From assembly GCF_000026545.1 (NCBI RefSeq), contig NC_011603.1: 64,000 nt of DNA. One strand, 5' to 3'. The stretch is from Escherichia coli O127:H6 str. E2348/69 (lineage in GTDB: Bacteria > Pseudomonadota > Gammaproteobacteria > Enterobacterales > Enterobacteriaceae). Position numbers: made by a program. Of the stretch, positions 61,001 through 64,000 are shown in pieces; within the stretch, counting starts at the first letter, position 1, and every line of letters starts with the position of its first letter.

Positions 61001-64000
61001 GACCGTGGTTGACAGCTTCAGTAACTTTGGCGAGCTCTGGCTGAACAGGGATAAACTCCCCGGGATTATCAATAGCTCTGCGGAGACGTTCAGCATGTAT
61101 CTGGAGCAGCAGATAGAATCGCTTATTGTCTGGCAGATCCCGAATACCTACATCATTGAATTCCGGGGCAAACCACTGGAACAACACTCATTGGGTCAAC
61201 GCGCATCCGCATTAATGCTGTTTGTCCTGAATCAGCAGGACAATGATGTGGTGATCATCGATCAACCCGAAGACGACCTGGACAATCAGACGATTTATGA
61301 CGACGTGATTAAAATCATCAGGGCGATGAAACCCCGCACGCAATTTATCTTTGCCACTCACAATGCCAATATTCCGGTGCTCGGAGATGCAGAAAATGTC
61401 TGTGCCTGTGAATATTCAGACGGAAAGATCCAGATTGTCGGCGGAGGCGTGGATGCCCCTCTTGTACAACAGCACATTATTTCGGTAATGGAAGGAGGGC
61501 GGGAAGCCTTCGAGCGACGCAGGGAAGTTTACGGCTCATGGCTCAGTAAAACCTGATACCATCATGCTTACTGAGCATACAGAAAAAGCCGCAAATGCGG
61601 CTTTTTAATTTTCTGATTATACCTTTTTTGGTTCTTCGATGGAAAAGAAAGAAATTACACAGGCCTGACATATCCATATGCCAGACATCTTCACATTCAA
61701 AGCATATGCATATACTGAGCATAGCCATACAGGCCGCCCGGTCAGGGGGAAATAATGAGAACTGTATCCATTTTTAAAAACGGCAATAACCGCGCCATCC
61801 ATCTGCCCCGCGATTTGGATTTTGAGCGGGTGAGAGAGCTGGAGATCGTCCGCGAAGGAGACAGCATCATCCTGCGTCCCGTCCAGCCGAACTGGGGCTC
61901 ATTCGCGCAGCTCGAAAAAGCCGATCCGGATTTTATGGCGGAGCGCGAGAATGTTGTCAGCGACGAAGGTCGATTTGACCTGTGAACAAAACGTATATGC
62001 TCGACACCTGTATCTGCTCGTTCATCATGCGCAAGCAGCCGGAAACTGTGCTGAAGCGCCTTGAGCAGGCGGCGTGTTTAGTCACCGCATTGTGGTCTCG
62101 GCCATTACTTACTCTGAAATGCGCTTCGGTGCCTCCGGTCCGAAGGCCTCCCCGCGTCACGTGCAACTGGTTGATAAATTCTGCCCGTGCCTCGATGCCA
62201 TCCTGTCTTGGGACCGCGCCGCGGTGGACGGCACCACGGATATTAAAGTGGCACTGCGCCAGGCCGGGACGCCGATCGGCCAGAACGATACGGCGATTGC
62301 CGGGCCTGAAGCTGGAAAACTGGGTAAATTAACATCGCCCACACTCTGAAGGACGTGGGTTCCGGCTTAAACAGGCGGACTGACTGCCCCAATCCTCCAC
62401 ACGCAAGCACGGCATGCCCCGCCGCTAAAATGTTACGAGCGCCGTTTACATCGGCATTCGCTGTATGACCACAGCCAGCACCTGACCACCACGCCAGAGC
62501 TGCTTATACTCAAGCTGGCAGCGCATTTCATACCAGCCCTGATCCAGTATCGAACGGTTTAAATCTGATTTTTATTCGTCATTTACTTCGAACAATACTT
62601 CAATAGATTTTGTCGGGTAGAAGAGCGAATCACAGTTTTCTTCCTTTAACTGTATAAAACCCAGTCGAAGGTAGAATTTTTTGGCGTTATCGTTCAGCGC
62701 CTCCACGAACATTCCGTGTATACCCACAGCCTGCGAGGCCTGATACACGACTTTCATCGCATGGGTAACAAGTGTTTCTCCATATCCCTGGTGATGAATG
62801 CTTTTATCAATTGCCAGACGGCCCAAAATCACGCTCGGCACATTTTTGTAGGGCACACGCTTTTGTTGTGTTTTGCTGGGGAGAAGTATTTTCTCAAAGC
62901 AACTGCCTGACAGGGTGTAGTACCCCATGACACGTGGTCTATCCTCTCTCGTCACGAGCAGATAACCCCGTAAAACCTTACTACTGTGCTGACGTTGCAG
63001 ATGATCGGTGAGAAAAGTATTCAGATACTCTTCTCCACAATCGAAGTTGCTTAATTGATATTCAACTTCCTCTGAAAAAATCTCAATCCTTAAACCGTCC
63101 ATTTATTACTCCAGTTCCCGGAGACGGTTAGTGGCGCGTTTCAGCCGGTCATTTGGTGCTGGCGGATTAGTGATTGCATCCATAACCAGATTCCAGGACT
63201 CCTCATTGAGGAGCAGGCGACGGTGCTGATCAATAACTTCAGCAGCACGTGCTGAGGCGGTACTGACCATGAACTGCGAAATGGACTGGTTAGTCATTGC
63301 TGCAGCTTCTTCGATCATGTGTTTGTCGTCTTCATTTAATCTCAGATCGATGCGCTGCTTCTTCAGTGCTGACATGGTTTTTCTCCCTGACCACTCTTAA
63401 TTCTGAAAGAACGGTCAGCTTTGTTAAGTTCGGGCCTTAAGGCGATAACATTTATCCAGGCCGGTCATGGTGATACTTTGATAGTGAGTACGGAAAAATA
63501 CCGTACAAACATAATAGAGTTATGGTATGCAGGTTTCAACCACAAGTTGGTTATGAATCCGGGTATAGCACGTAAAGGTATAGTGAGAAGACTCTCGACG
63601 CTAATCTGAGCAGGCTCAGACTATCTTTGGCGGGTCTGATCTTAAGAAGTCATTATTAAACTGCACTACGTAACCACCGTATTATGGATCTGCGAGCAAT
63701 TCAGGTACGGCATACTCTACATTGAGGGCTGAACCATCAGTGCTCGCCGCAGTCCGGTGACCGGGCTAAAGCCCGCGAACCGGCGAGGAAGCGCAATAAC
63801 ACAGAAGCTGAAGGAAGCAGGTACGCACTGTAGTCGCGGCAAGTGATCACTGAAGAACTATCTGAATTGCCTTGCTGCTCAGCAGGTTATCCACATATAC
63901 ATTCATTCGATCCAGCAATAAGATCCTTAAAGCGATCCCTGTAAGATCCAAAGAAGATCCCGACATCTCTGAAGGCCGCGCCAGCACTGAGCCTGGAGCA

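Follow-up and report, generated by a model that had tools for sequence, protein, structure and literature searches.

A GNAT/DUF1778 toxin–antitoxin pair beside the RepFIB replicon of the EAF virulence plasmid pMAR7

What a GNAT acetyltransferase gene with a DUF1778 partner does on a bacterial virulence plasmid is the question raised by a locus in Escherichia coli O127:H6 str. E2348/69. The window analyzed here, a stretch of 64,000 nucleotides (contig NC_011603.1), is 100% identical to the EPEC EAF plasmid pMAR7 (NC_010862.1) and likewise to pMAR2 of EPEC E2348/69. The GNAT/DUF1778 pair on pMAR7, already annotated, is probably an ordinary two-gene addiction module with intact open reading frames (ORFs); RefSeq lists the same two CDSs on pMAR7/pMAR2 as a GNAT protein and a TacA-family antitoxin. 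A literature search on toxin–antitoxin (TA) systems of pMAR7 and the EAF plasmid, judged by titles and abstracts, found no paper on this pair. Taken as a whole, the analysis below indicates that it is very probably an intact, autoregulated type II TA operon that serves plasmid addiction as backbone cargo beside RepFIB, with a toxin that would acetylate aminoacyl-tRNAs and so block translation.

The two proteins and their closest relatives

The initial annotation had described a GNAT acetyltransferase with a DUF1778 partner at 62572-63375, and both ORFs are found there, on the minus strand, with Pfam and PDB-sequence matches well in excess of chance. The antitoxin gene (63106..63375, minus strand; DUF1778/TacA family, 89 aa) lies directly upstream of the toxin gene (62572..63102, minus strand; GNAT acetyltransferase of the AtaT/KacT clade, 176 aa), separated from it by a 3-nt gap. 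The junction reads TAA-TAA and then ATG, with a GGAG 6 nt 5' of the toxin start, such that the toxin ribosome-binding site falls within the 3' end of the antitoxin gene. A search for a terminator downstream of the toxin gene found none.

The antitoxin matches Pfam family PF08681 (TacA1/DUF1778) with an E value of 1.5e-23 and, among PDB sequences, KacA (E 5.8e-38, 73% identity) and AtaR (2e-37, 69% identity). It is predicted to comprise an N-terminal ribbon-helix-helix part that binds DNA and a C-terminal part that binds the toxin. In KacA, operator binding needs R8 and R12, with D10 being weaker, while neutralization needs M65/I68 and R77 (PMC6698736). KacA and AtaR both have the same N-terminal KKQRIDLRL segment as the pMAR7 antitoxin, including R8, D10, and R12. 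The KacA neutralizing residues M65, I68, and R77 are also conserved, and Q70 is replaced by N, as in AtaR.

Four GNAT Pfam families recognize the toxin above their gathering cut-offs, with E values of about 1e-6 to 1e-7. Against PDB sequences, the matches are far stronger, with an E value of 3.6e-73 for KacT (65% identity) and about 1e-68 for AtaT (62% identity). The KacT/AtaT chains as a whole fall between 1e-67 and 1e-73; the next group of matches, which we take to be TacT-type chains, falls between 1e-13 and 1e-19, and chain 7BYY, presumably ItaT, follows at 1.9e-5. These similarity E values, on which the clade assignment is based, place the toxin in clade A (AtaT/KacT/AcaT; Bikmetov et al. 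2022), not in ItaT clade B or TacT/AtaT2/GmvT clade D. The clade A toxins AtaT, KacT, and AcaT acetylate Gly-tRNA and hydrophobic aminoacyl-tRNAs; they are rescued by Pth and therefore act on elongation (PMC9177977).

The residues needed for such an activity can be read from alignments to AtaT and KacT. Catalytic Tyr144 is conserved, as are G106 and G108 of the acetyl-CoA loop, the first position of which is H103 in the pMAR7 toxin and Q in AtaT and KacT. Read against PMC7595197, the toxin keeps F30 together with most of the tRNA-acceptor-contact and pocket residues mapped in AtaT (H34, R37, S76, K77, K81, Y85, R95, L27, and L136). Mutation of G108, Y144, L27, Y85, R95, or the alpha1/alpha3 basic residues abolishes AtaT toxicity (PMC7595197), and all of these residues are present in the pMAR7 toxin. 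Four mapped positions differ between the pMAR7-lineage toxin and AtaT (A26Y, R40S, K79Q, and Q103H). Of these, position 26 lies in the aminoacyl side-chain pocket and is Y in the pMAR7 toxin but A in AtaT and KacT.

The initial annotation had called the pair AtaRT-like and of type II. The type II TA reading is upheld by the homology to solved systems, the functional residues, the operator, and purifying selection. As for the likeness to AtaRT, membership of the same clade stands, but the pair is slightly nearer to KacAT and is an orthologue of neither (62-65% identity, plasmid-borne). KacAT of Klebsiella pneumoniae HS11286 (PDB 5ZGN, 5XUN) is the best sequence match for both proteins and shares the gene order, the catalytic tyrosine (KacT Y145, Y144 here), and the R8/D10/R12 and M65/I68/R77 residues. 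KacAT is chromosomal, whereas the pMAR7 pair resides on an IncF plasmid beside RepFIB, and Y26 and H103 in the toxin (A and Q in KacT) and N at the position of KacA Q70 set the proteins apart. AtaRT of E. coli O157:H7 (PDB 6GTS, 6AJM, and others) aligns without gaps, and the residues mapped in it by mutagenesis are mostly conserved in the pMAR7 pair. However, ataRT is a chromosomal locus between livJ and panM, and its DNA is only about 67% identical to that of the plasmid-borne pair. The pMAR7 pair works, as far as homology tells, like AtaRT but should not carry that name; the PGAP names are simply 'GNAT family' and 'TacA family'. TacAT1-3 of Salmonella and KacAT2-4 have the same family, architecture, and Pfam antitoxin family (TacA1/DUF1778), but their toxins are far more distant (PDB matches of about 1e-13 to 1e-19, compared with 1e-73 for KacT) and belong to clade D, with narrow Gly-tRNA specificity.

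Promoter, operator, and leader

The regulatory region upstream of the antitoxin gene had been missed in the initial annotation. A promoter scan, which relies on consensus matching only, finds a sigma-70 promoter-like site at 63511..63539 on the minus strand (TTGAAA-17 nt-TATTAT, 10/12 consensus matches). Its -10 box ends 4 nt ahead of a predicted operator at 63488..63506, the perfect palindrome GTACGG-N7-CCGTAC. This is the unique perfect match in 64 kb, a length in which 0.08 occurrences with at most one mismatch are expected by chance. The predicted operator overlaps the predicted transcription start at about 63504, and its half-sites and spacing are those of the crystallized KacA operator AAATGTACGGTTATTAACCGTACATGA (PMC6698736). 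In KacAT, too, GTACGG-N7-CCGTAC spans the transcription start. Of 30 distinct upstream regions from relatives, 25 have the perfect palindrome and 2 more have it with one mismatch. The -35 and -10 sequences are identical in the 89-93% variants, and a -10-like box lies 4-6 nt ahead of the palindrome in every lineage examined. The same operator motif is also found upstream of ataR; that it is common to plasmid and chromosomal members suggests that co-resident copies could cross-regulate each other. E2348/69 itself is without ataRT at the usual chromosomal site, where livJ and panM are separated by a 187-bp gap; this site was the one inspected.

From the geometry of promoter and operator, the stretch between the predicted start site and the antitoxin ATG should be a 5' leader of about 129 nt (63376..63504, minus strand). 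Among relatives, leaders can be as short as about 45 nt (ataR) or exceed 230 nt. Within the pMAR7 leader, an inverted repeat at 63387..63418 (minus strand) is predicted to fold in RNA as a stem-loop, with a 12-bp stem that includes two G.U pairs and an 8-nt loop (-15.0 kcal/mol, z = -3.2). At its 3' end, this stem-loop is immediately followed by the Shine-Dalgarno GGAG (63383-63386). Folding predicts a hairpin of different sequence at this position in 17 of 18 distinct leaders from plasmids and phage-plasmids, with per-sequence z values that range from -0.2 to -4.1. MAFFT and RNAalifold, applied to 16 leaders, yielded no consensus structure, since the stems cannot be aligned by sequence across lineages; the hairpin is thus put forward on per-sequence folds and wobble-compatible changes, not on statistical covariation. 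In this respect, the pMAR7 pair departs from both of its chromosomal counterparts. Its predicted operator is about 113-131 nt away from the ATG, with a long leader and a stem-loop abutting the ribosome-binding site, unlike KacAT; in the case of ataR, the operator is 27-45 nt away from the ATG, with no separate leader hairpin.

Other readings of the leader were considered and rejected. The inverted repeat at 63387-63418, paired with a weak promoter-like TTAACA-16-CAGAAT, could be taken for the operator. However, its half-sites are unlike the KacA/AtaR site, its sequence varies between lineages although the DNA-reading head of the antitoxin is invariant, and it has two G.U among its 12 pairs, a pairing that is confined to RNA. 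A 14-codon ATG ORF in the pMAR7 leader was dismissed as a leader peptide, being without a ribosome-binding site and deleted in the 89-93% variants. An Rfam scan of 61500-64000 returned nothing but a sub-threshold STnc50 match (24 bits against 55, E 0.39), which was treated as chance.

Plasmid and phage-plasmid lineages of the AtaT/KacT clade may differ from chromosomal AtaRT and KacAT in two ways, by a post-transcriptional layer and by an altered pocket, although we consider this rather unlikely. The possible extra control may reside in the long, highly variable leader, in which a stem-loop conserved in position, not in sequence, abuts the antitoxin ribosome-binding site. Alternatively, the pyrimidine-rich arm of the stem-loop could pair with that ribosome-binding site. 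In the case of the pocket, Tyr or His at toxin position 26, where AtaT and KacT have Ala, could narrow or shift the set of charged tRNAs that are acetylated.

Selection, plasmid context, and competing explanations

For the toxin gene, dN/dS is 0.05-0.20; for the antitoxin gene, five out of six comparisons give 0.07-0.24, and the remaining value of 0.58 comes from only three substitutions. Ratios of 0.05-0.24 over a dS of about 0.25 point to continuing purifying selection on both genes. The module is present in about 570 sequenced enterobacterial plasmids, 129 of them at ≥99% identity, and its carriers include NDM plasmids and IncF plasmids of the ST131 type. Its distance from RepFIB repB is about 0.9 kb in each of the five examined plasmids with ≥89% identity (pMAR2, pJJ1887-5, Z226-5, S. 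bongori RM1, and pK516_NDM1), and more distant relatives adjoin parA-like genes of phage-plasmids. Just outside the module is a remnant of an insQ/TnpB gene of the IS200/IS605 type (62355..62571, minus strand; two pieces, about 91% identity), which directly follows the toxin stop codon and has cut short the neighboring vapC. Similar insQ/tnpB genes lie on the chromosome in thousands of E. coli genomes, and the remnant is annotated as a TnpB pseudogene in plasmid NZ_CP159645.1.

The further TA loci named in the initial annotation can all be located in the window: vapBC at 9648-10273, ccdAB at about 57696-58221, and vagC/vapB at 61755-61985, the last followed by a frameshifted, truncated vapC (vagD). 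With the GNAT pair and the type I locus hok (207-356), the load amounts to one decayed and three intact type II loci plus hok. Three of the loci do cluster within 6 kb around the gene for an 873-aa PHP-ATPase (58935-61556), as had been noted, since ccdB through the GNAT pair spans 5.7 kb. To call this load unusually dense is an overstatement: one type II locus in four has decayed, and the load is normal for multi-replicon IncF virulence plasmids. For instance, when only a handful of systems were screened by PCR, multi-replicon FIA-FIB-FII plasmids had 2.72 of them on average (PMC3701463), and the same trio of CcdAB, a GNAT module (GmvAT), and VapBC is found on Shigella flexneri pINV (PMC6519299).

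The suggestion of a maintenance/defense island holds for its first half, as the cluster is situated between parM/resolvase/ccdAB and RepFIB repB. The defense half has only the PHP-ATPase to lean on. This protein belongs to the TrlF family of ATPases (540 bits, cut-off 350) and is distantly like the anti-phage Ppl (NCBIfam 160 bits against a cut-off of 1000; PADLOC Ppl E 3.4e-36, partial) and also distantly similar to AriA/GajA/PtuA-type ATPases; neither TA protein matches any PADLOC model. It is nonetheless worth weighing whether the module is real but has a main role other than maintenance, in abortive infection or other anti-phage activity or in persistence, as part of a small defense cluster with the PHP-ATPase. 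Besides the adjacent ATPase, this explanation can draw on the frequency of toxin relatives on phage-plasmids and prophage-like contigs (50 IMG/VR loci) and on the ties of chromosomal GNAT TA systems to antibiotic tolerance (PMC6698736, PMC9431474). We judge it improbable, as the module goes with the RepFIB replicon or with par genes and not with known defense genes, and plasmid stabilization by a GNAT TA system has direct precedent (PMC6519299). The adjacent vapC is also decayed, and the cluster is therefore not being kept intact as a unit.

That same decayed gene raises the question of whether the GNAT pair is itself an attenuated or silenced remnant that has lost its toxicity and hitch-hikes on the RepFIB backbone like vagD. 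The frameshifted, truncated vapC is conserved as such in several plasmids, and dead TA genes can therefore ride on this backbone. Single substitutions can silence related toxins, with KacT2 D78A being non-toxic and KacT4 failing through its start codon (PMC9431474), and the pMAR7 toxin has unusual residues at positions 26 and 103. However, both ORFs are full length, the known essential AtaT and KacA residues are all conserved, both genes are under purifying selection, and the promoter-like site and predicted operator are intact and conserved, making a remnant very improbable. That the GNAT protein is no toxin, but an ordinary acetyltransferase of small molecules or proteins that comes with a ribbon-helix-helix regulator of its own, is barely credible. 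In its favor, the generic GNAT Pfam matches are weak, RimI and PaiA-type enzymes of NCBIfam are reached at sub-threshold scores only, and AtaT is reported to acetylate the protein EspB (PMC7957018). Against it, full-length identity to proven tRNA-acetylating toxins is 62-65%, compared with E values of about 1e-4 for housekeeping acetyltransferases, and both the obligatory DUF1778 partner and the residues that contact the tRNA acceptor are conserved.

Proposed mechanism and significance

The preferred reading remains that of a plasmid addiction module, and its mechanism can be outlined by homology, step by step. Transcription would start about 129 nt upstream of the antitoxin gene, with the start site inside the GTACGG-N7-CCGTAC operator. 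Antitoxin dimers would use their ribbon-helix-helix heads (R8/D10/R12) to grip the two half-sites. As in KacAT, which is regulated by conditional cooperativity (PMC6698736), a toxin2:antitoxin4 complex would be the best repressor, and excess toxin would relieve repression. The C-terminal part of the antitoxin would wrap around the toxin and thereby block acetyl-CoA binding and dimerization. Upon plasmid loss or antitoxin degradation, probably by Lon as for GmvA, toxin would be set free. With acetyl-CoA and catalytic Tyr144, free toxin would acetylate the alpha-amino group of charged elongator tRNAs, which for clade A would be Gly-tRNA and tRNAs carrying hydrophobic amino acids. Translation elongation and growth would then stop, and the resulting post-segregational arrest of plasmid-free cells would stabilize the plasmid.

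A functional analogue can be found in GmvAT of Shigella pINV, likened here from the literature, which is a GNAT module on an IncF-derived virulence plasmid that also has VapBC and CcdAB. GmvAT stabilizes pINV by Lon-dependent post-segregational killing (PMC6519299), although GmvT belongs to the distant, Gly-tRNA-specific clade D (PMC9177977). Care must be taken in carrying over the size of the effect, and the contribution of the pMAR7 module to plasmid stability may be small or conditional. The effect of GmvAT is seen at 21 C and is not significant at 37 C, and CcdAB adds little to the stability of pINV (PMC6519299).

The significance of the GNAT module of pMAR7 goes little beyond housekeeping. 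The EAF virulence plasmid of the prototype EPEC strain has an intact GNAT-type module on its RepFIB backbone, together with vapBC, ccdAB, and hok. This module helps to explain the retention of a costly virulence plasmid, in parallel with Shigella pINV. Given roughly 570 carrier plasmids, its stabilizing power is also relevant to work on plasmid curing and epidemiology.

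The gene pair and its characterised relatives

The GNAT-DUF1778 pair that the initial annotation placed at 62572-63375 is real. Both reading frames were located on the minus strand in the ORF listing and by direct reading: an antitoxin of 89 codons (63375-63106) followed by a toxin of 176 codons (63102-62572), with just one second TAA codon between them and a GGAG lying 6 nt ahead of the toxin ATG. The antitoxin matches Pfam family PF08681 (TacA1, formerly DUF1778; E 1.5e-23) and the toxin scores above the gathering cut-offs of four GNAT acetyltransferase families; a search of NCBIfam returned no equivalog for either protein. 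PDB sequences matching the toxin include KacT (5ZGN/5XUN; E 3.6e-73) and AtaT (6GTS, 6AJM and others; E ~1e-68), with TacT-type chains scoring only 1e-13 to 1e-19; the antitoxin matches KacA (5.8e-38) and AtaR (2e-37). An ORF pair of this kind cannot have arisen by chance, and RefSeq already labels the toxin 'GNAT family N-acetyltransferase' and the antitoxin 'type II toxin-antitoxin system TacA family antitoxin' or 'DUF1778 domain-containing protein'. The module is intact, was correctly identified and annotated already, and belongs to a thoroughly characterised family. Across four variants with 89-93% DNA identity, dN/dS was 0.05-0.20 for the toxin and 0.07-0.24 for the antitoxin in five of six comparisons, the sixth value (0.58) coming from three substitutions; dS was ~0.2-0.3 in every comparison except this last. 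These low ratios indicate purifying selection on both genes.

The pair is not an orthologue of AtaRT. In gap-free alignments, the toxin of plasmid pMAR7 shares 61.7% identity with AtaT and 65.1% with KacT, and the antitoxin 69.3% with AtaR and 73.3% with KacA. AtaRT is chromosomal, lies between livJ and panM, and has a DNA identity to the pair of only ~67%. This site is occupied by ataRT in about one third of complete E. coli genomes; on the E2348/69 chromosome ataRT is absent from it and livJ adjoins panM across a 187-bp gap (segment L014; NZ_CP059840.2, 332752-334426), so the plasmid's host strain lacks ataRT there. A hicAB pair lies nearby, as does an ISEc13 copy whose protein is identical to that of the plasmid's two copies.

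Similarity puts the toxin in clade A of Bikmetov et al. (AtaT, KacT, AcaT). Since Pth rescues cells from clade A toxins (PMC9177977), these act on elongation and not initiation, which answers the question of initiator or elongator aminoacyl-tRNA for the clade, this protein excepted. AtaT residues whose mutation reduces or abolishes toxicity have been mapped (PMC7595197), and nearly all are kept in the pMAR7 toxin (G108, Y144, L27, L136, F30, H34, R37, S76, K77, K81, Y85 and R95). The changes from AtaT are A26Y, R40S, R71K, S78T, K79Q, K82R and Q103H. Position 26 (~63025-63027, minus strand) falls within the proposed aminoacyl side-chain pocket and position 103 (~62794-62796, minus strand) is the first of the acetyl-CoA loop; AtaT and KacT have Ala and Gln at these positions, whereas the pMAR7 lineage has Tyr and His. 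Across the clade, position 26 is Y, H, A, S or T, with His in S. bongori and Ser or Thr in other plasmid lineages. This variation may be a determinant of tRNA specificity. In the case of the antitoxin, the operator-reading R8, D10 and R12 and the neutralising M65, I68 and R77 of KacA (PMC6698736) are conserved, while KacA Q70 is replaced by N, as in AtaR.

Predicted promoter, operator and leader

A promoter-like site, TTGAAA-17-TATTAT (63539-63511, minus strand; 10/12 consensus match in the promoter scan), is followed four nt downstream by a perfect palindrome, GTACGG-TATTTTT-CCGTAC (63506-63488). Identical half-sites around a 7-bp centre are found in AAATGTACGGTTATTAACCGTACATGA, the DNA that was crystallised with KacAT and is reported to span the transcription start of kacAT (PMC6698736), and the motif recurs upstream of ataR as GTACGG-TGACATA-CCGTAC. 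The window holds one perfect copy, against a chance expectation of 0.08 matches per window with up to one mismatch. In 30 distinct upstream regions, drawn from 8 annotated loci and 50 IMG/VR loci, the predicted operator is perfect in 25 and has one mismatch in two; each of these copies lies 4-6 nt after a -10-like box and 45 to ~230 nt from the ATG. The remaining three have no copy within the 230 nt examined, where expanded repeats are found, and the motif may lie beyond. Because of the promoter match and the palindrome shared with KacA, ataR and the relatives, the predicted promoter and operator were placed at 63539-63488, implying a leader of ~129 nt. We infer that the antitoxin or the complex would bind the palindrome at 63488-63506. 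Phage-plasmid relatives (L011, L046-L053, L061 and L062) have tandem repeats, of heptamers or longer units, between operator and antitoxin ATG. The repeats, such as (CTGAAAA)n and (CTGAAACCTAGAA)n, vary in copy number and fall in the stretch that separates the antitoxin gene from a divergent parA-like gene; they may serve as partition sites or as iteron-like ones.

A 12-bp inverted repeat (63418-63387, minus strand) immediately precedes the ribosome-binding site of the antitoxin, a GGAG at 63386-63383. With two G.U pairs in its stem, it makes a better sense-strand RNA stem-loop than a DNA palindrome; its predicted fold has an energy of -15.0 kcal/mol (z = -3.2). When leaders just upstream of antitoxin ribosome-binding sites were compared among related loci (L005-L012 and L015-L064), 17 of 18 distinct plasmid and phage-plasmid leaders had a predicted hairpin ending 0-4 nt before that site. 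The exception is L008, whose lowest-energy fold sequesters the ribosome-binding site by pairing it with a CUCUCUC run. What is conserved is the hairpin's position, not its sequence: stems differ wholly from one lineage to another, and most changes inside a lineage are wobble-compatible. The 5' arm or loop is rich in pyrimidines (anti-SD-like). The z-scores of single leaders are modest, and no consensus structure emerged from RNAalifold when it was applied to the MAFFT-aligned leaders; the element is suggestive only. Chromosomal ataR, unlike these leaders, has no separate hairpin. The element may provide post-transcriptional control or stabilise the mRNA.

Plasmid setting and toxin-antitoxin load

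The region is 100% identical to pMAR7 (NC_010862.1; window position equals pMAR7 position minus 37558) and pMAR2 of EPEC E2348/69, the conjugative IncFIA/FIB/FIC virulence plasmid known as EAF (bundle-forming pilus). The module occurs in 570 of 72,556 PLSDB plasmids (129 at >=99% identity, 185 at 80-95% and 256 at 60-80%), hosted by Escherichia, Citrobacter, Enterobacter, Klebsiella and Salmonella, and at >=99% in 127 complete E. coli records. In pMAR2, pJJ1887-5, Z226-5, S. bongori RM1 and pK516_NDM1, RepFIB repB is ~0.9 kb away from the module, in divergent orientation. The order is TrlF-family ATPase, vapB, decayed vapC, TnpB remnant, GNAT module and repB, and since the whole block is common to pMAR2, pJJ1887-5 and Z226-5 it is an inherited backbone arrangement. 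Relatives of ~68% identity adjoin parA-like genes of phage-plasmids, and one 93% copy lies within an IS-rich chromosomal island. The insQ/TnpB remnant (IS200/IS605-type RNA-guided endonuclease; 62355-62571) has an internal deletion, sits exactly between the truncated vapC and the toxin stop codon, which it abuts, and is ~91% identical to chromosomal copies in ~4,900 of 5,426 complete E. coli genomes. Elsewhere, two ISEc13 copies in opposite orientations (545-1918 and 38967-40340) bracket the whole tra region; both encode transposase WP_000244358.1, also present on the E2348/69 chromosome, giving a potential for IS-mediated inversion or plasmid-chromosome recombination. An annotated 39-aa 'hypothetical protein' at 38126-38245 (minus strand) contains stop codons when these coordinates are translated, reflecting either a coordinate or strand slip or a doubtful annotation.

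The other loci listed initially, vapBC (9648-10273, between traI and traD), ccdAB (~57696-58221) and vagC(D), were all found, but the vapC (vagD) partner of the intact vagC/vapB antitoxin (61755-61985) is frameshifted and truncated (61755-62349 region). The antitoxin is thereby left an orphan, and the locus shows the same decayed state in pJJ1887-5 and plasmid NZ_CP159645.1. Type I hok (207-356) brings the inventory of the window to three intact type II loci, a decayed one and at least one locus of type I. Clustering within 6 kb around the PHP-ATPase gene was borne out (5.7 kb from ccdB to the GNAT pair), whereas a load described as unusually dense proved typical of large IncF virulence plasmids. 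In PCR surveys, which cover only a handful of addiction systems and none of GNAT type, IncF plasmids carry 1.9 on average, and FIA-FIB-FII plasmids 2.72 (PMC3701463). Exactly such a set, CcdAB, VapBC and the GNAT module GmvAT, is found on Shigella flexneri pINV, where all three are functional and where GmvAT and VapBC stabilise the plasmid in a Lon-dependent manner (PMC6519299).

As to the suggested maintenance/defence island, 'maintenance region' is apt because the cluster is flanked on one side by parM/stability genes, a resolvase and ccdAB, and on the opposite side by RepFIB. The toxin-antitoxin proteins matched none of the PADLOC models; for defence, the only pointer is the PHP-ATPase. This 873-aa protein (58935-61556, plus strand), with a PHP domain and an ABC/AAA-type ATPase, scores 540 bits against the TrlF model NF045780 (cut-off 350) and has sub-threshold similarity to anti-phage Ppl and to AriA/GajA/PtuA-type (ABC-type defence) ATPases. 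TrlF is named from the Photorhabdus temperature-restriction locus (PMC7554251). The gene appears solitary, with no trlG or trlR partner noticed here, and may be a one-gene factor for defence or maintenance that has been conserved on the IncF backbone seen here. Between it and vagC, a weak match to the Salmonella sRNA STnc50 (61575-61654, minus strand; Rfam, 24 bits where the gathering score is 55; E 0.39) is probably due to chance.

Homology allows the working of the module itself to be predicted with good confidence. The toxin would N-acetylate charged elongator tRNAs in an acetyl-CoA-dependent manner, the C-terminal part of the antitoxin would neutralise it, and autorepression would take place at the predicted GTACGG-N7-CCGTAC operator, with post-segregational growth arrest as the expected outcome.
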